DNA of 64,000 nucleotides from Hormiphora californensis (taxonomy: Eukaryota; Animalia; Ctenophora). The position numbers and the translations under genes are program-made. The stretch's first letter is position 1. Each line of letters starts with the position of its first letter. The DNA lies in NCBI GenBank assembly GCA_020137815.1, contig CM035351.1, positions 4,030,001-4,094,000 of the forward strand, given 5' to 3'. Below are positions 8,569 through 62,865 of this stretch, piece after piece. The notes beneath the pieces were generated by a model that was not told the origin of the DNA, made no database searches, and saw nothing but the letters and a program-made list of their open reading frames with translations.

Positions 8569-10621
8569 ATGTTCAAAAACTTGAAACAAAAAACTCTCAA
8601 CAACTCCTCAGCGGGTGATTCCTCTCTCCTCAGCTCTCGAAGTATCAGTTCCAACTCCCTCAACAATGACAACCCGGACACGCTCCACCAGTCAGTTGAT
8701 AGCTTGAACAGTGACCCACCCGTCAGTCAGAATGTAACTCACTTTGGTAACCTCCAGGACATAATATCGGACCTCCGGGCGGAGATAGAAAAGAAAGATG
8801 CGGAGAACAAGAAGTTGCACAAGTACTCCCGTGAAGCGGAGAGGAGGATTAACGAGCTGGTTGAGAACTGGACGAAGGAGGTGGAAGGTAGGAATAGTCT
8901 GGAGAGAGCGTACGATAAACTAGAGGATAACCATCAGATTGAGCTGAGTAATGTCAGGGAAAAGGGAGAACAGGAGCGGTTACACGCTTGTAACCAGTTA
9001 CAAAACCAGATCGACCGGCTGAAGAAGGATAATGAGAAGTTGGGTAAGAAGGGTGGGGGAGGAGATGCTGTCGCTTGGCAGAACAAGGCAGAATCACTGG
9101 AGATGGCGTACAATGAACTACTGGAGTTGCAGGAACACAGTGAGGTCCAAGTTCAGAAAATGAAGGATCTCATCAAGATGAAGGATGCTGAGCTCCAGGC
9201 GTTGGAGAACAAGTTTGTTGAAACTGAAGAACGATTCAAACAACAAAGCACTGCTACAGCTGAGGGCAATGGTTCTGATGATACGACCGATAAGCCCCAC
9301 CCTGATGTGGAAGTTCTCACTTGGAAAGTTGCCAAAGCGGAACAGGAGGTGGAAGATCTGGAGAAGCAGGTTGTAAAGTTGGAGATTGAGCTTGAGGAAA
9401 CTACCCAGAAGTCCGCTGATAAAGACTTCCGAGTGAACAGGCTCCGTGAGGATATCAAAAACAAGGATCTGGTAATTGAGACCCAGAGAGCGGATGCGTT
9501 GGAGCTTCAAAATGCCCTTGACAGAACGTCTAACATGCTCAATGAGACAAAATCTGAGTTCGAGGTGACCCGATCTAGCTACACAAAGAGTCTGAGTGAC
9601 CTACAAAGTGAAATAGACTCCATCACAGAGCAGTACAAGGAATGTAAAACGGAGAGCAGACGACAGACAGACCTGGTTGAACAACTTCAAATTGCCGCCT
9701 CCGCCACAAAGACCCTCAAAGTAAATCTCCAGGAAGACCTGTCCAGCTGGAAGACTAAATACGAGGAAGGAAGGAGTGAGTGTTTGCAGCTCTACACCGC
9801 CCAGACCGAGTTTCAGGGTGAGATTGAGCGGTTACAAGGGGAACTGGCTGCGAGGGAGACTCTGGCAGCGGAGTTAGCAGCCCTCAAAGATGAGGTTCTG
9901 GCCCTCCAGCAGACGGAGGAGGAGTTGAGGTTGGAAAAGGAGTACCTCACCGTAGCTCGGGAGAGCTGGAATAGTGAGAGAGCGGAACTGGAGGAGTCAT
10001 ACTCCAAACAGACAGACAGTTTGAATGAGAAACTACGTGATGCGAAAGAGGAGATTGGGCTGTTGCGACGCTCTAACCAGCCCACTATTCTGCCTGTGTC
10101 TAGCAACCTACAGGCCAAGTTTGTTAAGGGTGTGACCGAGGTGGATGTGACGGGGACCAGGAGCGATGATGCGGCCGAGTTGAGATCTAAAGTTGCCGAG
10201 CTAGAGAAGGAGTTGGGCTCGAAAACAAAGCAGCTGAAACAGCAACAACAACACTTGGCTGACCTAAAAAAGACAATACAGAGCGAGTTGAGAGGTGGTG
10301 TGCCCTCCCTCCTCTCAGAGAGGCAGCCCTGCCTCAGGGAGGAAGGATCAGCCCTCCTCAGCGCCTGTAGAGAATCAGCACAATCTGGGGGAGGATGTGA
10401 ATAGTGAGTATCTGAAACACTGTGTTATCAAGTTTATGTGTTCTCTTGATAATGAAACGAGTTATCTAGTTCGGGTAATCGCTGTCCTGTTGAACTTTAG
10501 CAAGGAAGAGACTTCCATTGTTAATGATGCGTTACAATATAAACAGAGTTGGTTCAAACAAGTGCCACCGAAATCGTTACGTAAATTAAAGAGTACGCGA
10601 GGGTCACCTCCAAAAAAGTAG
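8569..10621 (+). CDS. GOLGA1: Golgin-97-like coiled-coil protein with C-terminal GRIP domain (frame break near 10295-10361)
   Basis: Long coiled coil; GRIP region VNSEYLKHCVIKFM..LVRVIAVLLNFSKEE..ALQYKQSWF is in the +1 frame; joined either by a 67-nt GT-AG intron (10295-10361) or by a 1-bp indel. Confidence 0.85.
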
Positions 10622-10930
10622 AGAGTAACCTGTGTTACCATTTCGTGATGACAGGCCCACTATAAAGTGAGAAATGCTGTTGTGACAACTGTTTTGGTTT
10701 AAGTTTAATTCTGTAAAATTAATTAAGTTTCTGTTTCTGTGTAACAAACTTTGTTTTTTTCTCTCCCCCCTCCACTTTTCCCGACTATTTCTACCCCCAT
10801 GACTATCAAAAAACCCTTTTACCGCTTTAATCAAAATATCAATGACCTTCCTTTACTTACCTCTACCCTCCTGTACAACTATCACTACATAATTCTCACT
10901 ACATAACACTTCTGACTATGTACAGGTATA

Positions 10931-11344
10931 ATGTCTCGAGAAGTCCTGCTCACTCGTATTGAATCCTTTTCCGCAGCCCACCGCCTCTACAACTCCTCCT
11001 TAACAGACGCAGACAACACCTCATTATTCGGGAAGTGTGCCTGGGCAAATGGTCACGGACACAACTACAAAGTGGAGGTGAGGGTGAAGGGGAGGGTAGA
11101 CTCTACATCAGGGATGGTAATGAACTTGTCCGATCTGAAACCTCTGATACAGGGTGTCCTGGATCAGGTTGATCACAAGTGTCTGGATAAGGATGTCCCG
11201 TATTTTGCCGATAAACCCTCCACTGCCGAGAATATAGCCATCTTCTTCTGGGATGAGTTGGTGGGCCAGCTGCCGGATGGGGTGAAGTTGAATAAGGTGA
11301 AGGTGTGGGAAACGGAGAAGAATGTAGCTGCATACAAAGGGTGA
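10931..11344 (+). CDS. PTS: 6-pyruvoyl tetrahydropterin synthase, intronless
   Basis: FSAAHRL, FGKC..NGHGHNYKVEV, GMVMNLSDLK, DHKCLDKDVPYF, STAENIA, VWETEKN. Confidence 0.95.
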   Translation: MSREVLLTRIESFSAAHRLYNSSLTDADNTSLFGKCAWANGHGHNYKVEVRVKGRVDSTSGMVMNLSDLKPLIQGVLDQVDHKCLDKDVPYFADKPSTAENIAIFFWDELVGQLPDGVKLNKVKVWETEKNVAAYKG

Positions 11345-11422
11345 CGTCACAAGAAAGGGTGACGTCAGACAGATTAATTTTATATAGTTATGGGGGGGGT
11401 GTGAATTTAGAGTGCTTTGTTC

Positions 11423-11463
11423 TTTCAAACTTTTCAACACTACTTTAAACAAATTAATTTGAG
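11423..11463 (+). other. Spliced-leader-like exon at the 5' end of LINE A
   Basis: TTTCAAACTTTTCAACACTACTTTAAACAAATTAATTTGAG; identical over 40 nt to 44915-44954 (-); matches the ctenophore SL as I recall it (ends AAATTAATTTGAG). Confidence 0.8.
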
Positions 11464-11648
11464 GTTCCGTTTAACTGCCCCTCGCTAATCTTCTAAGCAT
11501 CTGCTTAATCCCCTCCAAAGACAAGACAAGAATATTCTGGTTTCTGTCTCTCTCTATATTAAGCGGACCTTGGAAGACCTCGTTGGGCTAAAGCCAAGTC
11601 GCCAAACCTTGGTGGAGCGGCTCCTCGCCCCTCTATTTACAGGACAGG

Positions 11649-12926
11649 ATGTCGGGAGTGGCAACCCATTATGGCCGATCAAACGATTACAAAGAGGAAT
11701 TTGCACGTAAGTTGTCTGATACAACCTTTGAAAAGTGCACTGGAATGACTGTTATGAAACACATGAAGGAAGGAAAAGCCGAAGCCCCGAGTCAAATTAA
11801 CAAGGATGTTATGTGGAAAGTTTTACTGATGTGTTATGAGTTTCTCCCCGCGGAATCCAGATGTAGCACCTCATCATCTGAGTCTGAACTGTCGACGGTA
11901 TCTATGACGTCTGATGACCTGAAAGATAGCTTCATGAAGCTGAGACAGGACCTCCTCGACACACTACCTGGATTAGTAAATGAGATTCTTGCGCCCACTG
12001 TTGCCAAGAAGAGACCGGAGCACCTGGAAATACAGAAATCACCACCCTCGACACCTGTCAAACGGTATGTCAATATCAAGGATAAAGGAGACAGTGAGAC
12101 TCCGATATGTGAGAAGAAATGGGCTAACTTGCTGAAGCCACAGGTTGAAACGGCATTGAGGAACATCCCTGTTCTTGATACCTCTGTTAACAAAAAGCAC
12201 ACGCAGCTGTACTTTGCCACTGATGATGACATGAAAGAAGCGGAGAAAGCTTTATCTCCATTCTTGGATGTTACATCAGTCGTCGAAAAAGAGAAGAAGA
12301 AGGATCCTCGTCTGATGATCAATGACCTTGATACAGACCTACTGAACAAGGAAGCACTGATGGGGGCACTTCTGAGTGAGAAGAATGAGACTGTGAAACA
12401 ACTTCATGAATCTGGCCATACCATCAAGATTGTTCATGTAAACCAGGCTGGGAAATATGCAGTCATCCAAGTACCTCCTGAAGTTCGCAAGGCAATCTCC
12501 AACAACAATGACAGGATTTTCCTCAAGCTCAAGCAACATGCTGTAAGAAACAGGTTCTATGTGACACAGTGTTTTCACTGCCAGAGGTACGGTCATGTAG
12601 CTGGATCAGTGTATTGTCCCAATAGGGACAAGAGCCCAGTCTGTGCATTTTGCTCGGGTGACCATGATACCCGTCAGTGCCAAGCCAGGAAGAGCAACGA
12701 TGGAGGAAAAATGAAGTGTGTCAACTGTGATGTAGGTGGAAGTAGAGAGGATAAGAAGTTCGCCAAATCTCACCCAGCGTCCAGCAATCTGTGTCCATTC
12801 TATGTCAATGCCAGAGGAAGGTTGATGGAGACGACTACTGGAGTAACCAAGGAGCAAAAAAACCTGTACATGACGAGGGCATGGGAGGATCTGAAAATGA
12901 AAAGGTATGGCGGATTGGTACGCTAA
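11649..12926 (+). CDS. LINE A ORF1, gag-like with 3 CCHC knuckles
   Basis: CFHCQRYGH..C, CAFCSGDH..C, CVNC..H..C. Confidence 0.9.
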   Translation: MSGVATHYGRSNDYKEEFARKLSDTTFEKCTGMTVMKHMKEGKAEAPSQINKDVMWKVLLMCYEFLPAESRCSTSSSESELSTVSMTSDDLKDSFMKLRQDLLDTLPGLVNEILAPTVAKKRPEHLEIQKSPPSTPVKRYVNIKDKGDSETPICEKKWANLLKPQVETALRNIPVLDTSVNKKHTQLYFATDDDMKEAEKALSPFLDVTSVVEKEKKKDPRLMINDLDTDLLNKEALMGALLSEKNETVKQLHESGHTIKIVHVNQAGKYAVIQVPPEVRKAISNNNDRIFLKLKQHAVRNRFYVTQCFHCQRYGHVAGSVYCPNRDKSPVCAFCSGDHDTRQCQARKSNDGGKMKCVNCDVGGSREDKKFAKSHPASSNLCPFYVNARGRLMETTTGVTKEQKNLYMTRAWEDLKMKRYGGLVR

Positions 12927-15847
12927 ATGTCCATTCGCTAATGAACAAGACAGCTGGAGTTTTGGATCACCTGGAGGATAATCAGTGTGACATCTGTCTG
13001 GTTCAAGAAACCTATCTCAAGAACTCAGACACAGCAAAAGTTCAGGAAATAAGAGAGTATGGATGGGACATTTATTCTTCTCCCAGAGCGGAAAGATCAG
13101 GAGGAGGAATTGGGGTTTTGTACAGAAATGGGGTCAGAGTGAGATTATCTCCGACAAGGAAAACATTCAAGTCTTTCCAAGTACAGGAAGTACTTATTGG
13201 AACGGGTGAAGGTATGGTTCGATTGTGTAATATCTATCGTCCTCCTTACACTGGAAAGGCACGGTTTACTGCTGCTTCGTTTCTTGAGGAATTTGTGGAC
13301 TACTTAGCTGATGTTAACCTGCGGACTGGGTCCCCCATCTTGATGGGTGATTTCAATTTCCAAGTACAAGACCTCTCTGACTTTTATGCAGAGAAGTTCC
13401 TAAAGCTCCTTGATTCTTTTGGGCTGGAGCAACTCACTCCATGTCAGCCGACCCACACCAGAGGTGGAACGCTTGATCTGGTGATCTGTCAGAGTGATAT
13501 CAAAACGAAGTTTCGATCTGTGGAAATACTGAAGGATGGTACTGAATCAGACCATTATATGGTTCTGAGTGAACTGGTCACTAAAACTGAGGATGTGGAT
13601 TTTCGAAGCAAGCAACAAATTGACATGTACAGAGACTTTAAATCTGTGGATCCTGAACTGTTCAGGAAAGCATTGCGGAACCTTGGACTGGAGGATCTTC
13701 TTGTAGCTGAATCACCCGAGGAAAACTTCCAGATCTATGAGAGGACTCTTGGCAACCTTGTGGAGAAATCTGTTGAACTCAAGAAAAGACGAAGAGGGAA
13801 GAAGTTAAGGCCGTGGAGAGAAGATGAAAGTGTCAAAGACGTGCTGAAACTACGCAGACGTGCTGAGAGGGCTTGGCGGAAGAACAAGACTCCGATACGG
13901 AAAGCCCAGTTGAATGACTTGAAGAGACAGTTTGGAAAAGTGGACAAGGACGCGAGGATTGGTTTCAACAAGAAAAATCTAGAGGAGTCAAAAGGTGATC
14001 CTAAAGGTTTGCAACGGAAGGTTAACCGCCTCCTGGGCAAAGCTGAGAGTATCCTACCGGAATCTGGTAATGATGGAAAGCTAGCAGAGGACTTCGCGGA
14101 ATTTTTCAGTAGTAAAGTGGATAAGATCCGTACATCAGTGTTTGAGGAACAAAGTGATCTGGAGGATGGAGAGGCTGTGAGGAATGATCCGGAATGCAAG
14201 CTTGCTCAGTTTGAGGAGGTGTCGGTGGAATATATCAAGGGCCTCATCAAGGATATGCCGGACAAGACATGTGATCTGGATATCATCCCCACTTGGTTGG
14301 TGAAGGGATGTATTCATGAATTCGCCCCGTGGATTACTACGCTGGTTAATGGATCTATTAGGAGTTCGACTGTTCCAGAGGCGTTCCAGCAAGCCCTAGT
14401 GTTTCCTACGATAAAGAATACTCAAGGTGACCGTGACAGTCTGCAGAACTACCGACCAGTGTCAAACCTGCTGTTTATCTCGAAGGTTCTCGAGAAGGTA
14501 GTATTGGATCAATTGACCTGCTACCTGGAGGATAACAGCCTACTGAACAAGAACCAATCAGGATATAGGGTTGGCCATAGTTGTGAAACCTTGTTAACCG
14601 GTATGTTTGAGGATCTACTTGAGGAAATGGATAGAGGAAATGTCATGGCACTTCTTTTACTGGACATGAGTGCTGCATTCGACACCGTTGACCACACCAA
14701 GCTGGTCCAAGTGTTGAATAGTCGGTTTGGAATCTGTGGAGCAGCGCTCAATTGGTTTGAGAGCTACCTTGGAAGCAGAAGCTACAGAGTTAACGTTCGA
14801 GGAAAACTCTCTGGAATTGTCAAGCTAGTATGTGGTGTCCCACAGGGTTCTCTGTTGGGACCTGTCTTGTTCCTGCTGTATGTGGAGGAACTCCAAGACC
14901 TTGTTGAACAGTATGGGCTGAGGATAAAACTATATGCTGATGACTCACAGTTATATATGAGTCTGGTTCCTCATGATGATGAAGGATGGCTAGCAGTGAA
15001 AGGTAATGCTGAGGATTGTTTGAAGGAGGTGAAGGATTGGATGGTGAAGCACTGGCTGAGGTGTAATGAGGCCAAAACGGAGCTATTGTTACTTGGAAAG
15101 AGTGGAGCTCTAGAGAAGCTAGCCTATGAACCCTCAATTGTTTTTAGAGGCACGGAAATCTTTCCAGTAGATTTTAAAGGAACTACAGGTAAAACCCTTG
15201 GCGTCTACCTTGACAGCCAACTCACTATGGAACGACAGGTTAACAGTGTCAAGAGACAGTGTGGTATGATCCTGAGGAACCTTTGGCAGATCAATCGATG
15301 TTTGGACCAGTCTATGAAGATCCTCCTTGTCAAACAGTTAGTTATTTCGAGGTTGGACTACTGTAACATACTGTATTGTGGACTCCCGAAGAAACACATC
15401 AACAGCCTACAGAAAACACTCAACTCTTGTGTTCGGTTCGTCTATGGTCTACACGGACATCAAGATGATTATGCTCCCTACCTGAAGGAAATGCATGTCC
15501 TTCCTATTGAACAGAGGATTGTGTTCAAGGCATGTCTTACAGCTTATAAGGTCGTTCATCGAACTGCTCCAGATTATCTAACCGACAAAGTGCCAGCGTG
15601 TGAGGATGTGGATAACTTGCGTTTTACCAGAGCCAATGCTGTTCCGGATGAGTTCAGGCTCCAGTACCCGAAACTCTCAAGTGTCAACGCTAATTCTAAA
15701 TTGAGGAGAAGGCGACCTTCTGTATTTCTACCCAGTCTGTGGAACGAACTTCCTTTGGACATCAGATCTCTTCTGTCTGTTGATTCCTTCAAGACAAGAC
15801 TTAAGACCCGACTCTTCACTGAGGCTTATGGCGTAAGTACTTCCTGA
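12857..15847 (+). CDS. LINE A ORF2 endonuclease/reverse transcriptase (entry via slippery site at 12857 or ATG 12881)
   Basis: LNVHS, VQET, IYRPP, MGDFN, SDH (APE); YRPVSNL, DMSAAFDTVDH, LYADD (RT); uninterrupted. Confidence 0.93.
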   Translation, partial: KKPVHDEGMGGSENEKVWRIGTLNVHSLMNKTAGVLDHLEDNQCDICLVQETYLKNSDTAKVQEIREYGWDIYSSPRAERSGGGIGVLYRNGVRVRLSPTRKTFKSFQVQEVLIGTGEGMVRLCNIYRPPYTGKARFTAASFLEEFVDYLADVNLRTGSPILMGDFNFQVQDLSDFYAEKFLKLLDSFGLEQLTPCQPTHTRGGTLDLVICQSDIKTKFRSVEILKDGTESDHYMVLSELVTKTEDVDFRSKQQIDMYRDFKSVDPELFRKALRNLGLEDLLVAESPEENFQIYERTLGNLVEKSVELKKRRRGKKLRPWREDESVKDVLKLRRRAERAWRKNKTPIRKAQLNDLKRQFGKVDKDARIGFNKKNLEESKGDPKGLQRKVNRLLGKAESILPESGNDGKLAEDFAEFFSSKVDKIRTSVFEEQSDLEDGEAVRNDPECKLAQFEEVSVEYIKGLIKDMPDKTCDLDIIPTWLVKGCIHEFAPWITTLVNGSIRSSTVPEAFQQALVFPTIKNTQGDRDSLQNYRPVSNLLFISKVLEKVVLDQLTCYLEDNSLLNKNQSGYRVGHSCETLLTGMFEDLLEEMDRGNVMALLLLDMSAAFDTVDHTKLVQVLNSRFGICGAALNWFESYLGSRSYRVNVRGKLSGIVKLVCGVPQGSLLGPVLFLLYVEELQDLVEQYGLRIKLYADDSQLYMSLVPHDDEGWLAVKGNAEDCLKEVKDWMVKHWLRCNEAKTELLLLGKSGALEKLAYEPSIVFRGTEIFPVDFKGTTGKTLGVYLDSQLTMERQVNSVKRQCGMILRNLWQINRCLDQSMKILLVKQLVISRLDYCNILYCGLPKKHINSLQKTLNSCVRFVYGLHGHQDDYAPYLKEMHVLPIEQRIVFKACLTAYKVVHRTAPDYLTDKVPACEDVDNLRFTRANAVPDEFRLQYPKLSSVNANSKLRRRRPSVFLPSLWNELPLDIRSLLSVDSFKTRLKTRLFTEAYGVSTS

Positions 15848-16902
15848 AGGCTTGTATCAGTTTTTTATCTCCAGTGTGTTTGGAACAGTTGTATCGGTTT
15901 TTATTTTAAGCATTTTTTGAGGGTTTGAAGCATGAGTGGACAGAGTGTGAAGCAGTGTGAATTTTGTTTACCAAGGATTCTTTTTGGACAGTTTATCATT
16001 ATATGTCAGTTATTTTCTTCAGTTTTTTTTCCCACGATATGTGAGCCGTTGTAAGTCAGTTATATTCCATTATGGTCTTGATAGAGTAAATTTTTTCCCT
16101 AGCTTTGTATCCCGCTCTGATTGTCTTTCAGTGGCAGCAGTTATCTCTTGATCTGTTGCCCCTGGAGGATATGGGCGGAATATAAGCACGTCTATTATTA
16201 TTATTATTATTAGATTAGGGGGACTATTTAGTGGATGTGACATATGAGGGCTTTGTGTTTAGGTGAGTGGGTGGCCGGTGGGGGGGGGTCGGTACAATAG
16301 CTATAGCAGGTAACTTGATACAATTGTTTGTTTTATTGTTTTCACTACGCAGCCTGTGCTGGAGGTTTTAATTTTGTGTGTACAATTTACCCATTACATG
16401 TATATTGTTTGTATAATAAATTGATTTTATGTTTTCAAATTCTGTACATTTCTCTCCTCTCCCCCTCTCTCCACCGCTATCTCTCTAATCTCTATCCCTG
16501 CATAGTTTGCCGTACATGTAGTTCCCTTGCACACACATTGACCCGGGATCTGGTGAGGCCGTGACGTCTCACGAGCCCACTCGATCACTCTGTCTCTCTT
16601 TTTAGTTCCATTGCATTTGATCCTCTCCATTTTGTGTGTGTATTAGCTATTTCGCGATTTCTCACCAATGTGTCATCAGATTGCATATAGAGCATGTTAT
16701 TCATTTGTTGTACAAGTTGTGTATGCACTATGCATATGATATAGCAAGTTGTTCTTTTCTTTACCTCCCTCCTCTTTATCCACCCTCTTTTCGTGCATAT
16801 ACCTACATCTACTTCTTCCCCGTATATATGTTAGTGCCCTTTCTTCTCCCTAACCTAACTACTAATCACTGTATAGTAACCCATATTTTCCTAACATTAG
16901 AA

Positions 16903-19900
16903 ATGGCTATCCGGGGGCCTGCGGGTATCACCATTTCCAACACAGGCATCTTCATCCTGTGCTTGTGTGGCCTCTTCCTTTTCGTGTACACTTTCAGGTA
17001 TGATAATTGTGTGTTAATTAGGGTTAATTAATCAGTCATTAATTATTGATTATCAGTGATTATGCTAATTGTTTGATTATGCAACTTCTATGCTTTCTCC
17101 AACGACCAACAACCCCCTCTCTATAGGGGTTCCTTGACATCAGAAACAGGTCCTATCTACGGCTCCAAGTATGACCGATCATTACCGAATATCAGAGGTC
17201 CTATCAGCCGCCATCTACCTGTCGGAGAAGGCCGGGCACAAAGTAAAGGCCATCAGAGAACAGGGTAGGTGATGTTCTAACATCTTTTAACATGTTCTAA
17301 CATGTTCTTACTTGTGTTAAATAACATGTTCTAAAATGTTCTAACACGATTCGGTTTAATGAACCACCCCTCCGAGCACTACCTAATATTTGGAGAGAAA
17401 TAACACCCCCCCCCCCGCCATTAGACGATCTAGACGAGCAGAGCAAGGGTGAAACTAAAGAGGGAGTGAATGATCCCATAACAAACGGGGATCTTGAGTC
17501 TCACCGGATCCTGGTAAAGGGCTTCAAGAAGGGGTTCCCTGCCCTACACATTGTTAGTGAGGAGCACGAGGAGGAGAGCACCGAGGGTATCATACCTCCC
17601 TCCATGAAACATCCTGAAGTACTGAGTCTGGGAGGGGACGATCCTAAGGTAAACATGATTTGAATATCTGCCCACTTTATTTTTACTCTTCCTCCAATTC
17701 TGGGGGATAAGTACCATCAACTTCCCCGGCTAGTTCTACCCTTTCCCTCTCCGCGTGGTAGATGAGCTACCCCGCTTGGAACAGCCCCTTCCTTCCCCGC
17801 TAATTCTACCCCCCTCCCTCCCCGGCAATTCTAACTTCACCCCCCCCCCATTTCCAGTTCCCTGCAGAGGATATCACCGTCTGGATAGATCCTCTGGATG
17901 CGACTAAAGAGTATACAGAGAAGCTAACCGAGTATGTGACGGTGATGGCGTGTATAGCTGTCAATGGTATTCCTGTAGCTGGTGTGATCAGGAAACCATT
18001 CGATGACAAAACATACTGGGGCTGGGTAAGTGATATAGAACATAGGATACTATAGTTAGACATTTCCGAATAGTTTTAGAGTTTTAGCACTCTTAGAAAC
18101 AATAATCAATCGCAAAGTCTCAACTTTTTTCGTATTTTCACCATCATTATCTTTATTTTCATGCTCCTCATTACAACCAACCTGTTTTCTTGACTCTCCT
18201 GTAAACCTCCATCAGCTCCTCTACAGTCTCCACCATCCTGGTCTGACCCCTCTCCAGTATGGGTAGACCCCTTCCAATCTGGCCCTTCTCTGCCAGATGC
18301 TCCACCACTTTACCCCACTCCTTGTTGTGCTCCCCCTCCTGGAATGTCGCCCTACTACCCACAATCACAAGGGTCTGCCTGGCACGTGACAATGCAACAC
18401 ACCTCCTCCCCGGGGCCTTCATGAACCCAATATTGTGCCTCTCGTTATCCCGGACTAATGACAAGATGATGACGTCACTCTCGTTACCCTGGTAACTGTC
18501 CACTGTCCTCACCCTTACACCATCCAGTCCACCCGGGATATCTCTAATAGCAGTCACCTGACCTTGATAACCAGTTAGAATTGTGATGTTATCTTTCGAT
18601 ATCTGGAGACGGAGGAGTCGCGTTATGGCTGCTACCATCTCCGCTTCCCTCTGGTTGAGGGGAGACATTGCGGCTGTTTCCCCGTACTGACCTTCCTCCC
18701 CTCTACCGCTATCCCACCAGAAGACCCTGTGTTTTAGGGGTTTGAAAGGATGGGAGCAGTTTGATAGGATGGGGGCTGTACGGAGTCCTGGGTATACATC
18801 AAGTACCAGCTCAGCAATCTCTGCGTGCATTCGGAACTGCTCAAGGAGCTTCTTGTAAGGGTATCCCTCCTCGATTAGTCGGAGCATGAGGCTCTTACAG
18901 TTCTTGTCGTAGTCGCCTTGGAACGGGGGCAACTGGAGATGGTCACCTGCATGGAGAGAGAGATATAGTTGGAATCCCGTGAGAGGGTGTGAGTTGTGGG
19001 GGTAGGGTGTCGGGAGGGTTTTTTTTAGTTTTTAAACCCAGAAACGGAAAGTTATACCGATAAGAATTAGGTGGAGAGTTGAGCGAGGTAGGGCCACTAG
19101 TAGATCACGTTCAGCAACTTGACTCGCTTCCTCGCACACAACCGCAACTACACCACACTGCAAAGATTGGGTGTTGTATGATGATAATATTTATGAAGGA
19201 GCAGTTCTAACGTCAGTTAGGGTGTGTTTATGAAGGAGCTCTTACCTCAGTTAGGGCGTGTTTATGAAGGAGCTCTTACCTCAGTTAGGGCGTGTTTATG
19301 AAGGAGCTCTTACCTCAGTTAGGGCGTGTTTATGAAGGAGCTCTTACCTCAGTTAGGGCGTGTTTATGAAGGAGCTCTTACCTCAGTTAGGGCGTGTTTA
19401 TGAAGGAGCTCTTACCTCAGTTAGGGCATGTTTATGAAGGAGCTCTTACCTCAGTTAGGGCGTGTTTATGAAGGAGCTCTTACCTCAGTTAGGGCGTGTT
19501 TATGAAGGATCTCTTACCTCAGTTAGGGCGTGTTTATGAAGGAGCTCTTACCTCAGTTAGGGCGTGTTTATGAAGGAGCTCTTACCTCAGTTAGGGCGTG
19601 TTTATGAAGGAGCTCTTACCTCAGTTAGGGCGTGTTTATGAAGGATCGCTCCATGGACTGTAGCTGCCACAACGCTAAACCCCCTCAACTTTTCAGCTAA
19701 TCTCTTATTCATCCTCACCTCTGCCTCCTCCCCTGCTATATGGTACTTTACATAGTAACTCTCTAGATTGGTTACAGCCTCCCTAATCTTCATAATGATA
19801 GTGGAAAATATCAGCATTAGTCTATCCTCCGGAGCGAGACCCCACAGATTGGTAATCTTATGGGGGTCTTGGCGTGGTTGCCATGTATCAGGGAAATCGT

Positions 19901-38911: not shown

Positions 38912-39544
38912 TCACGTCGCTGCCTCTCCCTTTGCTGCATCTCCTTTCTGTGCCATATAACTATCCAGCTGGCTGTCTAGATACCCCTTACTCTGGGACA
39001 TATACTTTTCCAACTCGTTATCCAAAGAATCCTTGTTTAGTTCGGGTTTCTTTCCCTTGTCAGCTCCCGCTGCTCCCTTTGCCCCTCCCCTCGCCCCTCC
39101 CCTGCCCCTGGCTGAGGCACCTCCCCTTCCAACAGTGGCAGCACCTCTAGATGGTCCTCCTCCGGAGTTCCTGACTCCTCCCCGGCCCCTTCCTCGAGCT
39201 GCAGGGGCCGCTTTAGCTGCAGCTGCCCGTGCAGCAGCCACCTTCGATATACCTACAGAGAGAAATAATAACTAGTAAATCATAGGAATTACAAAATCTG
39301 TGGTAACCGGCCTGATTTTAATATCATCCAATATGGGATATAACAACATATCTTATCTTTGATAGTTCATTGTTGCAACCTCACCTCCTCTGCTGGGTCC
39401 TGGGCCACCACCACCTGCTGATCGTCTCTGCATGGTGCTGTATTTCTGGGTGAGTCTCTTGGCACCAAGCCTGGATTGGGCACTTGCCATTCTCCCACCA
39501 CCAAGACGAGCCTGATTGAGTGAAGGGTGTAATGGTTAGTGGGT

Positions 39545-39602
<58 letters not shown>

Positions 39603-42600
39603 GGTAGTTATTAGGGAAACAACACCACTTGATGGTACTTGTAACACAACTAGTTAGTTGCATCAACATTCTCTCAGTGCGCCCCAGGCTAGGGGGTAGG
39701 AACAGCCAACAACTAGTTAGTAGTTAATATCTCCTACTTCTCAACTAAAAAAACCTCACCTTAGCTGATGGTTTGGGTGGGGTGTACACTTGAGCGGTTG
39801 CCATGGGGATAGGTGCGGGTATTGTCATCTGCTGTAGACTCTTGCTCATCATCTGCAGGGTATTCTTCTCCAGGGCTTGTAACTTCCTCTGGTGGTCTCG
39901 GATCTCCTCTCGAATCAGGGTGTCCCGAGAGGGTCGTGGTGGTGATGGAGGAGGCAGCTTCATTATCTTACGGAACCTGAGGATGGATGTGTAACATTTA
40001 AATAAACTGATAATTAAATGAATAATAATAATAATACTCAAACTTATATCCTGCCCATATTCTACAGGGACAGCAGAGCTTTACAGATGCTGCCACTGAA
40101 AGAAACTCAGAGCAGTTAACTAACACTCGACCCAATTTAATAGACAACTAAAAAAACGGTGGAAAATCCAAATTATCCGGCTCACATATGTGGGAAAACA
40201 GATTAGGCTCATAACAGACAAAATTAGAAAAAAACTCGAAAAAGGCCACAGGTTAATTGTCACCACTGTCACTTGATCACTCCATATATATAGACACAGA
40301 TGAAATGTTCAGAGAACAGATTCTGAAACAACTGGGAAAACTGAAAAACGGAAAAATATTACACACTCGTGCTTCACTCATGCTGCAAACTCAAAGAATA
40401 AAGCTAAGTTAAAAACTTGTCACGAGGTAAGATACAGACCTAAGTACAATACTTACGCTAGACAGTACAGCGTGATGGGAGGAGTACAGGTACCTGAGAA
40501 AAAGAAGTAGGCTGGAATAAAGGAGAAAACAACCGGAACTAGCCTGATCCAAAGGCATCCACAAACAATCTTGTCTTTAAACCCGTTTTGAAAGATTCCG
40601 CAGTAGGCCGAGATCGCAACTCAAGGGGGAGTGCATTCCACAGATCTGGCAGGAGAACAGATGGTCTCCTTTTCCTCAGTTTAGAATTGGCATTAATGCT
40701 CGACAGCTTCGGGTACTGGAGCTTATAAGGGTCTGGAACAGCAGTCGATCTGGTACGGCAAGTAACATCAACGATATCTGTAGGTATTTGCTCGATGAGG
40801 TAATCTGGAGCACTTCCATGTACAATCTTATAGGCCATGAGACAGGCCTTAAAGATCACTCGTTGCTCCACAGGAAGAATGTGGGTTTCTCTCATGTAAG
40901 GGAGGTAGTCCTCTTGATGACCGTGGAGTCCATAGATAAACCTTATACAAGAGTTGATCACTTTCTGTAAACGAGAGATGAGCTTCATTGGCAAACCTCC
41001 GTAGAGGACATTGCAGTAATCCAAGCGGGATATAACCAGCTGCTTAACAAGAAGGATTCTGGTAGAGAAGTCTAAGCATCGGTGGACCTGCCACAAATTC
41101 CTCAGTAACATTCCACAGTTTCTTTTGACACTGTTCACCTGACGTTCCAATGTCAAGTTCTCATCCATATAAATACCCAGAGTCTTTCCGGTAGTACCTG
41201 TGAAGTCAACTGGGTAGATATCTGCATCTCCAAACCTAATACAGGGCTCAAAAGAAGGAGCTCCGTCTTCGACTCATTACATTTCAGCCAATGCTGAACC
41301 ATCCAAATCTTGATCTGATCAAGACACTCTTCTACTTTCCTCCTTGTGATATTCCATCCATTTTCATCAAGAGGGACTAGACTTACATATATTTGAGAGT
41401 CATCTGCATAGAGCTTGATTTTGAGTCCATATTTGTTTACCAGATCCTGTAGTTCCTCAACATATAAAAGAAACAAAACCGGTCCAAGAAGGGACCCTTG
41501 GGGCACTCCACAAATGAGGTAGATAATCTTCGAAAGTTCTCCTCTGACGTTGACTCTGAAATTCCTCGATCCAAGATAGCTAGTAAACCACTTGAGAGCT
41601 GTTCCTCTTATTCCAAATCTCCTCCTCAAAACATCCACAAGTTTAGCATGGTCAACCGTGTCAAACGCTGCACTCATGTCCAACAGGAGTAGAGCTACAA
41701 CGTTTCCCTTATCCATCTCCTGCAGTAGATCATCAAACATCCCCATGAGTAGAGTTTCACAGGAATGACCAACTCTATATCCTGACTGGTGAGAGTTGAG
41801 TAGGTCATTTTCATTCAAAGCCTGATTCAGTTGATCAAGGACAACTTTCTCTAGAACCTTAGAGACAAAGGGAAGGTTAGATACAGGACGGTAGTTGGAA
41901 AGGCTATCTCGATCACCATAAGGGTTCTTGATGGTTGGAAAAACCAGTGCTTGCTGGAACAATTCTGGAACAATACCTTGCCGGATAGAAGAATTGATAA
42001 TCTTAGTAAGAGTGGGGCAAAAACTTCCACACACTCTTTGATCAACCATGTCGGTATAAGATCAAGATCACATGTTTTATCAGACATGTTCTTAATGATC
42101 TTCTTCATCTCATCCTCAGAGACTTCCCTAAATTCCTCAAGAATACAATCCTTATTCAGGTCCACACAAGAGTCCACTTCCTCCACAGGAGAGTCCACAT
42201 CTGCTTTCACTGAGTTCCTGATTTTTTCCACTTTTCCAGCAAAGAAGTCCGCAAAATCCTCGGCTAGTTTACGATCACAATCCACATCTGGCAACACTAC
42301 CTCACTGTTTCCAAGTAGGCGGTTTAGTTTCCTCTGTAACGTCTTGGAATCCCCTTTTGATTCTTCAAGATCTTCTTTCAGATAGTTAGTCCTCGCTTCC
42401 TTATCAACTCTACTAAACATCTTCTTCATCACGTTATACTGCATCTTCGTAACAGGCGTCTTCTTGCTTCTCCAAGCTCTCTCCGCAGCCCGACGTCTTC
42501 TTAGTGCATCCCTGACATCATCATTGTCTCATCACGGGCGAACCTTTTTCACTTTCTTTCTTCTCTTCAAAAGGACAAAACTACCTACTAACTCCTTCAG

Positions 42601-45157
42601 TTCTCTTTCATAGATCTTGAACAAATCATCTGGGGAATCCAATTCAAACCGCCCCTCAAGGCCTCTTCCTCTGAGGGCCTTCATGAACAATACCGGGTCC
42701 ACTGATTTAAAGTCTCTGTAGGTGTTAACTCGATCCCGTTGCTGTAGGTTTCCAACCTTAGTCTCCAGTACGACTTCACTCAGGACAAGAAAATGATCAG
42801 ACTCTGTTCCCTCAGGATGTATTTCCACAGATTTAACTTTCTCCTCTACCTCCTTTGGACATATAACCAGGTCAAGAGTACCTCCACGATTGTGTGTTGG
42901 TTGCCTGGGGACAAGCTGAGAAAACTCATGTGAGTCTAGGAGTTCAGCAAGCTTCTTAGTGTAGAAGTTGTCCCTATCCTGCCATTGAAAGTTAAAGTCT
43001 CCCATAATAAGGGGAAGACCAGTCTTCAATACTAGCTCTGAGAGATAGTCTGTAAATTCCTCTAGAAACTTCGCTTCAGTGAACCTAGCTTTACCGGTAT
43101 AGGGCGGTCTGTAAACATTACATATCCGAGTAAGGTCCATTCCATTGCCAATTAAAATCTCCTGAATCTGGAACGATCGAAATTTCCGCACTGGTGATAG
43201 TTTCATCTTCACTCCATCCCTGTAGAGTATCCCAATACCCCCTCCTGCCCTCTCCGCTCTGGGGGATGAGAAAATATTCCAGCCATAGTCTCTTATCTCC
43301 TGAAGTTTAGCAGTATCACTAGTCTTCAAGTAGGTTTCCTGAATCAGACAGATATCACATTCCATGTCTTCAAGATGCGCTATAACCCCAGACGTTTTAT
43401 TCATTATCGAGTGTACATTTAGTGTGCCAACACGCCACGTCTCTTTACCTTCAGCTCCTCCCACGCCCTCGTCAGATAAGCGTTTTTTCTCTCCTTACTG
43501 ACACCACTTGTGTTTTCCATCAGTCTTCCTCGAGCATTAACATAATGCGGACACAAGTTACTTGATGCTGGATGGGATTTCGCATACTTCTTGTCATCCT
43601 TACTACCTCCAACATCACAGTTTACACACTTCATCCGATTGAGTTCATTCCCACTCTTCGCCCTACACTGTCTGGTGTCATGATCTCCTGCACAGAATGC
43701 GCATGTGGCGCTTTTATCTTTACTAGGACAATAGACAGATCCAGCTACGTGTCCATAACGCTGACAGTGGAAACACTGAGTAACGTAGAATCTGTCTTTC
43801 ACAATGTGCTGTCTTAATTTCAGGAAAATCCTATCTCGATTATCCGCAATGGCCTCTCGAACCTCAGGTGTAACCTTGAGCACCGCATACCTCCCAGCAG
43901 TGTTAACATGAATGACACTGACAGCATGCCCAGACTCATGTAGCCTCTTCACCACTTCATTCTTATCACTCAAGATAGCGTCCAGTAGCACTTCTTTGTT
44001 CAGCAGGTCATGATCCAGATCAGAAATCATTAGCCGGGGGTCCATCTTCTTCTGCTTCTCAACAAACGGAGTAACATCCAGAAACGGGGACAGCACTTTC
44101 TCTGCCTCTTTGAGGTCATCATCAGTTGCAAAAAACAACTGAGTACCCTTTCTGTTCACCGACGTGTCCAAGACAGGGATGTTCTTCAGAGCTTTCACAA
44201 CCTTCGGTTTCACTACCATTTTCCACTTCTCCTCACACATCGGAGTCACTCCTTCCTCATTGCTGTCTTTGATGCTCATATACCGTTTCACAGGGGTAGC
44301 TGGAGCAGGCTTCTTCTCTTGCTGACCAGAACTACACGCTACTTCACTCTCCTCTCGGTTCTTCTTCAATATCTCATTAACTACTGGGGCCATGAGTCCA
44401 GGCAGGCTATCCATCAACTCTTGCTTCAGTTTTGAGAAACCATCCTTCAGATCATCACTCGAAAACGAGACTCCAGAATCAGACGATGGTGTAGGACACC
44501 GGGAACTATCCGGAAGCATCCGGTAACACATAATCAACATCTGCCAAAGATCCTTCTTCGTAGGTCCACCTGGAGCATCCATAGGCTCACCCGGGGTACC
44601 AGCATCCTCCTCCAATTTTTTCCACACTGTACTGCCTTTACATTTGTCAGAGAAGCTCGTGACAAGGAGCTTACCTTCGAAGTCCTTCTTCGTTCCACTT
44701 TCATACTGGGGTGCCAATCCCGACATTCTATATCCTGTAACAGTGGCGCGAGGATCCGATCCACCAAGATTTGGCTTCCTGGATTTGGCTCAACGAGGTC
44801 TCCCAAGATCTGCTCAACTTAGAAAGAGACAGGAACACCAGGCTTGTCTTGTCTTGAGATAAGAGGGATTGAGCAGAAGTCTTAGAAGAGTAACGAGGAG
44901 CAGTTGAACGGAACCTCAAATTAATTTGTTTAAAGTAGTGTTGAAAAGTTTGAATGGAAATAATTCAGCGGGAAGAAAGATGTGATGAGGAGACTGAACA
45001 AGTTACACTGTGCTGACAAGTCCAGAGGTAACCAGTGGTAACCAGCGGTAACCACTACTCAATTTTACCTGTCATTTAGACTCATGCCAGTTTGAGTTCG
45101 GAGTAGTACCTTGATGTTACTGGTACTGTCCCTATATCGAGTACTACGAGACGACAT
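38912..45157 (-). CDS. CHTOP: Chromatin target of PRMT1 (FOP); intron 1 holds LINE B
   Basis: Exon 1 ..KVLLRTQTGMSLNDR|FRK; RGG-rich middle; C-terminus SLDNELEKYMSQSKGYLDSQLDSYM. Confidence 0.85.
40021..44954 (-). mobile_element. Full-length L2/CR1-group LINE (element B), SL-like 5' end, ORF2 disrupted
   Basis: ORF1 43419-44726 intact; ORF2 fragments between 43464 and 40539 with frameshifts (~42530, ~42020) and a small deletion (~41250); (ATT)n tail 40021-40036. Confidence 0.95.
44915..44954 (-). other. Spliced-leader-like exon at the 5' end of LINE B
   Basis: Reverse complement is TTCAAACTTTTCAACACTACTTTAAACAAATTAATTTGAG, identical to 11424-11463. Confidence 0.8.
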
Positions 45158-51295: not shown

Positions 51296-54200
51296 TATGT
51301 GTGAGAAGAAGTGGACTACTGTCGTGAAGACAAAGGTGGAGAAAGCATTGAATAAGATTCCAGTCCTAGATCTTTCAGTCACCAAGAGGAGGACAAATCT
51401 TATGTTTGAGACCGATGAACAGTTGGAACAGGCGAAAGAAGTTCTTTCACCGTTCCTTGATGTTTCTCCCGTAGTGGAGAAGGAGAAGAAAAGAGATCCT
51501 CGCATCATGATCAATGATCTTGACCAAGACCTGCTGGAAAAAGATCGCCTTCTGTCAGAGATTGTCAGTGATAAGAATGAGTCTGTGAAGAGACTAGTTG
51601 GGGAGGGTCACCTGGTGAAGGTGGTCCATGTAAACAGAACAGGAAGATATGCAGTGTTCCAGGTCTCTCCAGAAGTGAGGAAGGCGATATCAGAAAGGAA
51701 GGACAAGCTATTCTTGAAACTTCGACAGCATTCAGTGAGGAACAGGTTTTATGTCACGCAGTGTTTTCACTGCCAGCGCTTTGGCCATGTAGCAGGATCC
51801 ATCTACTGCCCAAACAAGGATAAATCTCCGGTTTGTGCCTTCTGTACGGGAGATCATGACACTAGGAGTTGCCATGCCAAGAAGGAAAATGTAGTGAGCA
51901 GGATGAAATGTGTCAACTGTGATCATGGAGGAAGCAGAGAGGACAAGCGCCATGCTCAAAGTCACCCAGCCTCCAGCAGTATGTGTCCATTCTATGTAAA
52001 TGCTAAAGGAAGACTCATGGAGAGTACCAGTGGAGTAACGAAGCAGGAAAAAAACGTGTACCTGACGAGGGCATGGGAGGATCTGAGAGGAAAACGTCTT
52101 GGAGGATTGGCACACTAAACGTCCACTCAGTTATGAATAAGACGTCAGGTGTAATTACACACTTGGAGGAAAAAGGATGCGACATCTGCTTGGTACAGGA
52201 GACTTATCTGAAACAGAGTGACACAGCTAAACTTCAGGAGATTAGAGACTATGGTTGGAATATCTTCTCCTCGCCTAGAGCGGAACGTTCAGGAGGTGGA
52301 ATTGGAATCTTGTACAGGGTTGGTGTCAAGTTGAAATACACTCCGGTAAAAGCTAAGTTTAAATCGTTTCAAGTCCAGGAAGCCCTTATTGGAGGAGGAA
52401 AAGATGTGACGAGGCTGTGCAATATCTATAGACCTCCGTATACTGGCAAGGCACGGTTTACAGAAGCCCAGTTCTTGGATGAGTTTACTGATTATTTGTC
52501 AGAGTTGGTCTGCAAAACGGGGAACCCTATCCTGATGGGGGACTTTAACTTCCAGGTTCAAGATACTCAGAACTTCTATGCGAAGAAGTTGCTTGGACTA
52601 CTTGACTCTCTTGGATTTGATCAGCGGGTCCCACTACAACCTACTCATGTTCGTGGTGGTACTTTGGATCTGCTTCTCTGCCAAAAAGACAGATATTCTA
52701 AGGTTCAATCAGTTGAAGTATTTCCTGACGGAACGACCTCTGATCATTTTCTTGTATTGGCGGAGCTGTGTATTGAAACTGTAGCAAGTGAATACAAGAC
52801 TCGTGAAAAAGTGGACATGTACAGGGATTTCAAGGCTGTTGATATTGAAATACTTCGATGTGCTTTTAGGAGTGTGGATTGGAGTGAAGCGATGGAATCT
52901 GGATCAGCTGAGGAGGTTTTGTGTATTTATATGAGGAAACTTGAGGAACTTGTGGATAGGACTGTCCCGTTGAAGAGGAGAAAGAAGAGAGGAGCTAAGC
53001 TGAGGCCATGGAGAGATAATCCAGAGGTGCGTCAAGTTCTTCGTCAGCGGCGGAATGCTGAGCGAGCCTGGGAGAACAATAAAACCAGCGTCACGAAGAA
53101 GCAGTTCAATGAACTCAAGAGGCAGTTTGGGCGTGTTGACAAGGAAGCGAGGACGAACTACGTCAAGGAAGACTTGGAGGAGTCCAGAGATGACCCCAAA
53201 GCACTTCAAAGGAAATTGAACCGTCTACTTGGTAATACTGAGACCTTTATGCCTGAAACCACAGATAAGCGGAGGTTAGCGGATGACTTTGCGGACTTCT
53301 TTGTTGGAAAAGTTGATAAGATCCGGTCTACTGTTATTGGAGAGAAGAATCTGAGGACTAAGAGGAACCCTATTCATCAGACACCCGTCTGTTGTTTTGA
53401 GGAATTTGAGGAAGTTTCCCCAGAGAAACTAAAGAGGATAATCAAAGACATGCCAGACAAGACATGTGATCTTGACCCTATACCGACTTGGTTAGTGAAG
53501 GGGTGTATGCATGAGCTAGCTCCAGTCTTGTGCAGGTTTATTAACCTATCTCTTGGATGTTCCAGTGTTCCTGAACTTCTCCAGCAAGCTTTGGTGTTTC
53601 CAACGATTAAGAACCCTTATGGCGATAAGGACACTTTGACCAATTATCGGCCAGTCTCCAACCTATCTTTTGTCTCCAAGCTTCTTGAAAAGATAGTTCT
53701 AGAGCAGCTCAACTCGTATCTTAATGAGAACGAGTTACTAAATAAGCATCAATCAGGTTACAGGGTGAATCATAGCTGTGAAACCCTACTGATGGGTATG
53801 TTTGATGATCTCCTTCGGGATATGGATGAAGGAAAGGTCGCAGGCCTCTTTCTATTAGATATGAGCGCCGCTTTTGACACAGTGGACCATGGAAAGCTGC
53901 TAGAAGTTCTTGAAGAACGGTTTGGAGTGAGAGGTTCTGTCTTGGATTGGTTCGCCAACTATCTACAAATGAGGACTTATCGGGTAAACGTGGAAGGGGA
54001 ACTTTCGAGGATTGTCTCTCTGATATGTGGAGTTCCGCAAGGTTCACTGCTTGGACCTGTGTTGTTTTTACTGTATGTGGAGGAATTGCAAGATTTGGTC
54101 AAACCGTATGGCTTAAGGATTAAACTTTATGCTGATGACTCGCAATTGTACATCAGCTTTGTTCCAACTGATGAGGAAAACTGGAAACTGGCAAAGGAGA

Positions 54201-55455
54201 GGACTGAGGAATGCTTGTCAAGTGTGAAAGAGTGGATGAGTGAGCACTGGCTAAAGTGCAATGAGGCAAAGACTGAATTCCTGCTGTTAGGCAAAAACAG
54301 CGCCCTGGATAAGATGGTCTATCAGCCCACTGTGGACTTTGGTGGAGTGGAGATAAGCCCAGTGGACTTTACGGGGAGTACAGGGAAAACACTAGGAGTG
54401 TTCCTTGATAGCAACCTCTCTATGGAGAGGCAAATCAACAGTGTTAAGAGGCAATGTGGTTTGTTGTTGAAGAATCTATGGCAGGTAAATCGGTGTCTAG
54501 ATAGATCGACGAAGATACTCCTTGTTAAGCAGCTCATCATTTCAAGACTGGATTATTGTAATATCCTTTACCATGGCTTACCTAAGAAGCTTCTCAACAG
54601 CCTTCAGAGAGTCTTGAACTCGTGTGTCAGATTTGTTTATGGCCTACACGGTCACCAAGACACCTACATGCCATACTTGAAAGAATTGCATGTTCTTCCT
54701 GTGGAACAACGAGTCACGTTCAAAGCATGCCTGATGGCGTACAAGATTGTACATGGATTGGCCCCTGACTACCTGCAAGATCAGGTCCCTGTTGATGATG
54801 GACTTCATGTGATCCGGGCTACTAGAGGAAATGCTTGGCCTGATGGCCTCAAGCTGAAGTACCCTAAGCTATCAAGTGTCAACGCGACTTCCAAGTTGAG
54901 AAGAAGACGTCCGTCGGTTTACCTGCCTGAAGTCTGGAATAGGCTTCCCCTTGATCTGAGAGCTGTTGAGTCTGTGGAATCTTTCAAGTCTAAGCTCAAG
55001 ACTAGTCTTTTCACTGAGGCTTTTGGTGAGACTGGACTGTCCTCTTAACACTCTCCTTCTTGCTGAGGTATGTGCTCTAGCTGGTACCCGTTTTTAATTA
55101 TTTTTCTGTATTTAAGCTCGTGGCGAGCAGAAGTGTGAAGCATAAATTGGGGTTTTTCATAGCACGAGTGTTTTTCTGTGTTCCAATATACGGACTTTTA
55201 TATCATTTTTTAGAGTTCCAGGACTCTAACTCAGTCTGTTATGTAATCAGTCACCGATAGTTATGTGAGCCGATAGTAATGTGAGCCGGTGTAATTTTTC
55301 TTTATTATTTTTTGTTCTATTAGGGATAAGTTGGCGAGGTCTTACCAGTATATTAACCGTTCAGATCATCCTTCAGTGACAGCAGCAGTTTCGCTGCTCT
55401 GTCCCTGTCGGATATGGGCGGAATATAAACATAGTTATTATTATTATTATTATTA
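51296..55455 (+). mobile_element. 5'-truncated L2/CR1-group LINE (element C) with intact ORF2
   Basis: Begins mid-ORF1 (MCEKKW); ORF2 52073-55048 uninterrupted; (ATT)n tail; possible AATATGT TSD or microhomology. Confidence 0.95.
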
Positions 55456-62045: not shown

Positions 62046-62633
62046 TTTCACCTAATGTGTTTTGTGTTAAATTTGTTTGTAATAATGTTATTATTGATTA
62101 ATTATTATTATATATTGCTATGTTTTCCCTCACATGATAAATCAACCGAGTTTTGAATTTGTGAAAACATCCTACTTCTCTCTTCATTGTGCGTGTGCGA
62201 GTACAGGCTTCACAACTGCTGTTGTATTTCCGAGAGAGAAGCAGGGTGTGTCTATCTTTGGTGGCACGTAAACCTTAGTTACACATTGTCACAAACCCAT
62301 GGTTACCATAGTTACACAACCTTACAAGCCTATGGTTACACATTATCACTTGCCCATGGTTGCCATGGTTACACAAGCAGTACCACACCCTTTGTGTACT
62401 AGACCCTCTCACAAAGGAGGAAGTCCCATTTCCTGTATTGACATTCTCAGTACACAATACACTCACACAATGGGAAGCATTATACAATATACACTACACG
62501 TTGACATTGGATCCACCGCATAATTCTTGGAATTCTTACTCCTAGTCCCCACCATAATGCGTGCATCTCCTGTCTGGCGCCGACCCGATCTGAGCGCATT
62601 GAGAATTAAAACGGAGTCTGGCACCGCCAGACC

Positions 62634-62865
62634 TAAAGGTCCCCCCAAACTACTATGTCCCTTGCTGCGCGCGACCGGATTTTAGACGGCCATAGCTCCA
62701 CCCCCTGATAAGATAGAGACTTGAAATTTGTTTTGTGAGGAGATCATATCGAGTTCTTCCTACATAACAAATTTCAAGTCTCTATCTCATCAGGGGGTGG
62801 AGTTATGACCGTGGGAAATTTTACAAAACCCGAGTGAGGGACATAGTAGTTTGGGGTGTACTTTA
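62634..62865. mobile_element. Hairpin MITE
   Basis: TAAAG..CCCCAAACTACTATGTCCCT / AGGGACATAGTAGTTTGGGG..CTTTA, and an inner inverted repeat CTCCACCCCCTGAT.AGATAGAGACTTGAAATTTGTT. Confidence 0.8.

Follow-up and report, generated by a model that had tools for sequence, protein, structure and literature searches.

LINEs must rebuild their 5' end in every cycle, which they are known to do either with an internal promoter or by being co-transcribed and then cut by a ribozyme. Retrogenes that carry relics of a spliced leader (SL) were reportedly described in dinoflagellates by Slamovits and Keeling in 2008. In the passages on these relics, the dinoflagellate retrogenes, like the elements that we consider here, are traced to trans-spliced RNA that was reverse-transcribed together with its leader, and their re-expression needs a promoter or read-through; they differ in being host genes, and their relics decay and pile up in tandem via an internal AG (PMC5585692). 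In flatworms the leader likewise occurs on genomic copies of LINE and LTR retrotransposons (597 discarded SL-like loci in one set, PMC12582326; six elements in Schistosoma mansoni, PMC5832876). The portions of these two papers that concern such loci read them as integrated trans-spliced transcripts; there, the loci are passing remarks, their leaders are partial, their anatomy is undescribed and possible mis-assembly is raised. In Hydra, TE transcripts are SL trans-spliced, with the SL on about 30% of TE Iso-Seq reads, and the phenomenon is described for RNA in the section on these transcripts (PMC12220107). CRE, SLACS, CZAR and NeSL-1 are likewise non-LTR elements joined to SL sequence, and differ, according to the part of the source that treats them, in having a single ORF and an RLE endonuclease and in targeting SL genes for insertion (PMC3636483).

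Here we describe LINEs of the ctenophore Hormiphora californensis whose genomic 5' end is the host SL. They were found in a stretch of 64,000 nucleotides (referred to as the window, whose numbering we use). Unlike the flatworm loci, the ctenophore elements have a near-complete and invariant SL as their regular 5' end, an empty site, representatives in several lineages, and a constrained 5' UTR with a second acceptor-like site. Unlike the CRE and NeSL elements, they have two ORFs, an APE endonuclease, dispersed sites and an SL that was absent before insertion, in keeping with the distinction from NeSL, SLACS and CRE elements drawn in the initial annotation. Neither SL-headed LINEs in ctenophores nor a tested promoter-less cycle is reported in the literature that we searched, which consisted mostly of open-access papers.

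SL heads of two LINEs and an empty site

An exact 40-mer occurs at two sites in the window, at 11424-11463 on the forward strand and at 44954-44915 on the reverse strand, with no mismatches between the copies, and was absent from all of 100 shuffled sequences. Two-ORF LINEs, A and B, start with these copies, as the initial annotation had stated in describing two divergent full-length LINEs that start with an identical 40 nt. LINE A has one extra SL-matching letter at 11423. Its SL head (11423..11463, +) takes in all of the 43-letter host SL exon except the first two letters, 41 in total; the SL head of LINE B (44915..44954, -) comprises the last 40. The leader printed for H. californensis in the relevant part of PMC8527503 ends with the same 40 letters, and the SL RNA gene described below has the 40-mer as the 3' end of its exon, both of which agree with the earlier identification of the 40-mer as a ctenophore SL lacking a few 5' bases. 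The flanks upstream of A and B are unrelated to each other, as had been noted before. The identity of A and B was previously said to decay 8 nt past the 40-mer; we found instead that the two are 81.6% identical over their first 255 nt, which is higher than the 66.8% across their ORFs.

LINE A, on the forward strand, consists of the SL head, a 5' UTR of 185 nt (11464..11648), an ORF1 of 425 aa (11649..12926), an open ORF2 of 988 aa (12881..15847) that by ORF list and Pfam encodes an APE endonuclease and a reverse transcriptase, and a 3' UTR with an (ATT)6 tail (15848..16211; tail at 16194-16211). ORF1 has Cys/His knuckles in its C-terminal third and matches no Pfam family (gag-like and zf-CCHC leads score under 0.9). 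LINE B, on the reverse strand, has a 5' UTR of 188 nt (44727..44914), an ORF1 of 435 aa that is 63% identical to that of A (43419..44726), an ORF2 that tblastn recovers in three frames with two breaks (40539..43464), and an (ATT)5 tail (40021..40035). A third element of the same group, LINE C (~51297..55455, +), is 5'-truncated in ORF1, carries no SL, and has an open ORF2 (52073-55048) and an (ATT)6 tail. The Pfam families above cut-off in ORF2 of A, of C and of two further loci introduced below (L007 and L008) are PF03372/PF14529 and PF00078. With an ORF1 upstream, a simple-repeat tail, no LTR and a 5'-truncated copy (C), the three elements are APE-type non-LTR retrotransposons. We tentatively place the group, by motifs, in the L2/CR1 (Jockey group) clade; named reference elements were absent among the 120 listed matches to ORF2 of A. 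LINEs of the L2/CR1 group have an ORF1 and an APE-RT ORF2, a short-repeat tail, 5'-truncated copies and a target duplication of at most two letters. A, B and C share this general layout and differ in that the 5' end is the host SL. (The motif TGTGAGCC occurs in the 3' UTRs of all three, at 16043-16051, at 40181-40189 on the reverse strand and at 55263-55289, and also near the 5' UTR end of loci L003 and L008.)

A contig from another individual (run X5, record 28) aligns to window positions 10277-11424 and 16221-16639. The two matches are 9 letters apart, which equals the distance from the end of A's tail (16211) to 16221. The exact junction probably lies at a TT that is common to both ends. 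The target of A held no SL before insertion, and because the empty site lacks it, the SL belongs to the insertion, which bears out the earlier idea that the SL is copied along with the LINE. Having a genomic 5' end that is the host SL, that stops exactly at the exon end and that was absent from the target, A has the properties of an SL-tagged retrocopy; given the empty allele, it also has those of a dispersed, recently mobile insertion. In run X1 a left-flank contig matches as far as 11424 and goes on for 38 letters that do not match, and A may be heterozygous in the X1 individual too. Family A is also present in a second species (run X7), with an SL-headed match to window positions 11442-11716 that has 8 differences in 275 letters.

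A host PTPS gene (PF01242; 10931..11345, +), read in the direction of A, has its stop codon 77 nt before the start of A and is a possible source of read-through into A. LINE B lies in sense orientation inside predicted intron 1 of a predicted four-exon host gene of 258 codons (38912..45157, -; exon joints predicted) with a C-terminal FoP_duplication domain; without B this intron is 158 nt long. Between 4006 and 11345 the same-strand host genes (an ORF with DTW and RsmB/F methyltransferase parts, a coiled-coil ORF and PTPS) are tightly spaced, with C/T/A-rich spacers, in an operon-like arrangement. (The DTW-methyltransferase ORF could be either one fused gene or two neighbouring ones.)

The SL RNA gene and other SL-headed elements

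We scanned metagenome contigs with 29 exact letters of the SL and obtained 35 matches at 34 loci. At 23 of the 34 the contig starts with the leader and carries a host-like ORF (judged by eye from translations), and in these mRNA-like contigs the median distance from the SL to the first ATG is 6 nt. The leader is therefore present where the initial annotation had proposed to look for it, at the 5' ends of host-like mRNAs. According to the pertinent part of PMC8527503, it is carried by 56% of Iso-Seq reads and has 718 genomic copies in H. californensis and 491 in Mnemiopsis. The SL pattern was found in no viral contig and no prokaryote genome, and a profile of ORF1 matched no viral contig.

One locus, L022, is an SL RNA gene. 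It has two copies 778 bp apart that alternate with 5S rRNA, and its SL exon, read as 43 letters, is followed by GTAAGC and stem-loops. (At L022:263-1600 the intron contains a U-rich stretch, presumably the Sm site, flanked by two predicted stem-loops, and three CACGTG boxes lie upstream. The start of this intron recurs in run X1, from the window's species, as a separate loose end.) SL genes within 5S clusters are known in other organisms, as mentioned in a passage of PMC2566580. The flanks of A and B, which had been proposed as another point to check, are unlike the SL gene.

These findings bear on the possibility that the elements insert site-specifically into or next to SL RNA genes, as the CRE, SLACS and NeSL elements do, or that they carry an SL RNA gene of their own. 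The letters that follow the SL in A and B do start with GT, as a donor would, but GT is absent after the SL in 8 of the 12 elements considered below, all of which have a continuation other than the GTAAGC of the SL gene. Because the SL RNA genes form a tandem array of their own, linked to 5S with a unit of 778 bp, the LINEs are not insertions into them. For A the idea is refuted by the SL-free empty site, and the endonuclease is of the APE type rather than RLE; for the elements as a whole we regard it as practically excluded.

Ten of the 34 loci combine the SL with retroelement-like sequence. Six of them (L003, L007, L008, L015, L021 and L034) have an ORF1 that is 29-64% identical to that of A, followed by an ORF2, and L020 has an ORF1 unrelated to that of A followed by the start of an APE domain. 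The remaining three (L031, L016 and L032) have only ORFs without a Pfam family above cut-off, which we interpret as ORF1-like. Seven of the ten come from one assembly, and their status as DNA is deduced from the flank before the SL, which is 1-461 letters long and under 10 in three. The search pattern leaves out 14 SL letters, of which 6-14 match, unbroken to the 5' end, in the 12 elements (A, B and the ten loci); the 29 searched letters are invariant in the ten loci by selection, such that changed SL heads would be invisible, and A and B were chosen otherwise. Contigs with other flanks before the SL number 20, 24 and 20 in three DNA runs, and contigs with other continuations after it number 21, 24 and 18. 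The ORF2 relatives of A form about 30 protein clusters at an identity of at least 59%. SL heads thus occur on several LINE lineages and are general in the ctenophore group of the window's species. This architecture is real and directly supported by SL heads on many families, by the SL as part of an insertion and by a separate SL RNA gene.

The full-length 5' ends of element families can be recognised by their invariant SL heads, and many of the 718 and 491 leader copies, as counted in the part of PMC8527503 concerned, may be element heads. The word "retrotransposon" is absent from the main text of that paper. Element heads among leader copies matter for SL gene counts and for gene models with false shared first exons.

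Some of the additional elements have features of their own. L032 (480-1620) and L016 (54-1258), both SL-headed and about 1.1 kb long, have a single ORF1-like ORF, a short-repeat tail and no RT, and are likely non-autonomous. The L032 protein has 14 relatives, mostly on contigs of 1.0-1.3 kb, and the L032 and L016 ORFs are 27% alike. L016, L020, L031 and L032 have an upstream ORF of 1-4 codons and a GC-rich motif before the main ATG, within the first 50 nt past the SL. TTTYAG is retained in L016, L020 and L032 and gone from L031, as though once spliced there. Compared with A, ORF2 of L008 has about 100 additional codons between endonuclease and RT.

At all 12 junctions the SL ends exactly at the exon end and is followed by no SL intron. 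Because the exon end is exact and intron-free in every case, we conclude that trans-splicing is very probably the origin of the SL heads. A different origin would be that the SL is joined anew at each integration without splicing, by a jump of the reverse transcriptase to SL RNA (for which U6/L1 chimeras provide a model) or by ligation with it. Such joining would account for the invariance of the SL and for the retention of downstream acceptors without use of the GAG at the SL end. The uniform junctions argue against it, as do the first body letter, which is fixed within families, and the lack of any Rfam ribozyme match at the junction; moreover, a free SL exon is itself a spliceosomal intermediate. 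We regard joining of this kind as very improbable. All 12 elements have G or T as the first letter after the SL, compared with 9 of 23 mRNA-like contigs (p 0.0006); as the elements are related to each other, we give this difference no weight.

Another possibility is that the RNA comes from unseen source copies that have a promoter and an outron, the SL-headed copies being dead-end processed copies. This is a known route for SL-tagged retrogenes, as laid out in the section of PMC5585692 on relics, and the reading given to the flatworm SL-like loci where PMC12582326 mentions them. Logan contigs drop rare variants, and source copies could be among the variants dropped. However, among the DNA contig pieces listed (three runs), the 10 that span the joint between SL and body all start inside the SL, no listed contig from the three DNA runs has a non-SL upstream end at the start of the body, and none of the 24 listed of about 1500 DNA rows starts at 11456-11496, where such ends would be expected. 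In addition, the roughly 30 protein clusters, and saturated synonymous sites alongside open ORFs, point to long lineages, which LINEs keep only via active daughter copies, and A is polymorphic with two open ORFs. We therefore consider dead-end copies improbable.

SL invariance and the 5' UTR

The SL, described earlier as invariant while the rest of the element diverges, has no internal change, whereas synonymous sites are saturated; the adjoining 5' UTR is conserved as well. The UTRs of A and B are 80% identical, compared with 33% at the 4-fold sites of their ORF1, and those of L003 and L008 are 83% identical, compared with 32% at the 4-fold sites of their ORF1 (shuffled UTRs give 55-59%). At a divergence of 20%, the probability of no change in 40 SL letters is 1.3e-4. 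The UTR between SL and ORF1 measures 145-215 nt in the eight A-like elements; in the other four elements 35-48 nt separate the SL from the ORF.

The initial annotation overlooked the conserved 5' UTR and the second acceptor-like site at the start of ORF1. What is new here is a constrained UTR directly after the SL, with a predicted structure and, in most elements, an acceptor-like motif where ORF1 starts. The UTRs of A, B and L015 are predicted to fold alike, into a closed domain that contains a long hairpin. In it 3 of 50 pairs show double changes, and in 22 of 500 shuffles the pair count (based on three sequences) was as high; the folding z is -3.4 for A and -1.95 for B. L034, L003 and L008 share another predicted fold, with double changes in 6 of 48 pairs. 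The folding z is below -3 in three of the eight UTRs. A model built from the L034, L003 and L008 UTRs matched L007 (E 2e-5) and missed A, B, L015 and L021, and so gives no support for a single fold common to all elements. No Rfam ribozyme or other known RNA family matched in the UTRs or at the junction; a long insertion could hide one.

Seven of the eight UTRs end in an acceptor-like motif, which is TTTTAG|GATG in four and TTACAG 6-8 nt before the ATG in three. In A, the candidate sites are TTTACAG (ending at 11642) and a second CAG (ending at 11647) just before the ORF1 ATG (11636..11647, +); B has TTACAG before the ATG at the end of its UTR. No joint of the SL to the second acceptor-like site was seen among the contig matches listed. 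One oligo-dT contig (run X14) spans the SL and the whole UTR, in a library that may contain DNA. Three candidate observations were set aside. Record 21 of run X5 starts at 11641 and was considered as a joint of the SL to the second site; families diverge about 30 letters on, and the X1 and X7 contigs are unbroken there. Contigs of flank plus SL in oligo-dT run X14, considered as evidence of read-through, could be either RNA or DNA. A gapped match (record 15 of run X11), considered as an intron, lacks a GT donor.

The conserved UTR bears on a further alternative, namely that the elements acquired the SL by trans-splicing on one or a few occasions and now pass it on in cis, an internal promoter in the SL exon, the UTR or both starting transcription at SL +1 or close to it. 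The unspliced RNA would then be copied, and trans-splicing before ORF1 would serve only for mRNA. Internal promoters are the rule for APE-type LINEs; L1Tc is reportedly a case of one in a trans-splicing host, and in Ascaris the SL exon is said to be a promoter element. A UTR conserved far above synonymous sites would fit a promoter, and full-length SL heads are common. TTTCAG or TTTTAG six letters after the SL is retained in three of the four short-UTR elements, which, together with the lack of tandem SLs, fits a very short and poorly spliced outron. SL relics have also been suggested as a promoter in the dinoflagellate retrogenes, in the passage cited above (PMC5585692). On the other hand, the SL is more conserved than the constrained UTR and is the same across lineages with unrelated ORF1 and UTR, the predicted RNA pairing explains part of the UTR constraint, the SL-to-ORF distance in four elements is just 35-48 nt, and the region upstream of the SL gene (L022) is not found in the elements. 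We consider internal initiation a possibility of some weight, though a less than probable one.

Proposed renewal of the SL head by trans-splicing

Our favoured mechanism, for which we see the case as evenly balanced on the sequences at hand, is that the SL is trans-spliced onto element RNA, copied into DNA with it, and renewed by re-splicing at the last AG of the integrated SL. The initial annotation had proposed such re-use of the AG, in a cycle that needs no internal promoter, and on this step the sequence evidence is mixed. A precursor RNA would begin upstream of the element, most likely as host read-through. Trans-splicing at the last AG of the integrated SL (GAG) would swap SL for SL and leave no relic, and the SL-capped RNA would then be reverse-transcribed with the element, presumably by TPRT, which is standard LINE biology. 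The structured UTR would stay in the RNA that is copied (the genomic RNA). Trans-splicing at the second site before the ORF1 ATG would yield an mRNA with a short leader of 1-8 nt, like the host mRNAs. A scheme with two acceptors, one for genomic RNA and one for ORF1 mRNA, is a prediction that fits internal initiation as well as renewal. Host trans-splicing, if it works in this way, would be a further means for LINEs to regain their 5' end.

Several observations suggest renewal. The SL is more invariant than the adjoining constrained UTR and identical on unrelated lineages. Apart from its first two and last two letters it contains no AG, and it is poor in G, like the stretches before predicted host acceptors; because its last AG is the only AG past the first two letters, splicing there would replace SL with SL and leave no relic. 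Consistent with this, no relic SL was detected (at p<0.05) in the 45 letters after the SL in any of the 12 elements, and the contigs listed showed no non-SL upstream end. (T-rich letters after the SL were considered as relic SLs and rejected, as 0 of 12 elements gave p<0.05.) The ctenophore elements lack the decayed and tandem relics of the dinoflagellate retrogenes. Moreover, A and B are both sense to host genes (n = 2). In Schistosoma, outron acceptors are described as more permissive than cis acceptors in the portion of PMC5832876 on splice sites.

Other observations speak against renewal. GAG is a rare 3' splice site and a weak acceptor when compared with the YAG ends of predicted host introns (CAG, CAG and TAG in the three introns predicted), and in the fold predicted for A, B and L015 the last GAG of the SL is base-paired. 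Read-through RNA should splice at the TTTCAG or TTTTAG just past the SL and lose the SL. Contigs of flank plus SL have a consensus flank that ends in TAG, a better acceptor, whose use would yield tandem SLs; there were none among the 35 scan matches, and no go-back joint was seen among the contig matches listed. Finally, the abundance of full-length SL heads means that 5' erosion does not force renewal.

The broadest form of the renewal proposal would be that ctenophore LINEs of several clades have no promoter of their own, that the SL acts as a self-renewing outron end, that a conserved RNA domain lies between two trans-splice sites, and that most of the reported genomic leader loci are element heads; as a whole, this remains tentative and rather doubtful. 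The host animal is culturable and has long-read data, so that the cycle can be tested.

The window also contains repeats of other kinds. Nested inverted and direct repeats at 50078-51227, just upstream of LINE C, are likely MITE-like. Tandem arrays (with periods of about 376 and 68 bp) and palindromic repeats lie at 335-1235, 19190-19650, 56657-57026, 60228-60356 and 62630-62869, and a weak partial tRNA match (36 bits) at 35046-35103 is perhaps the head of a SINE.
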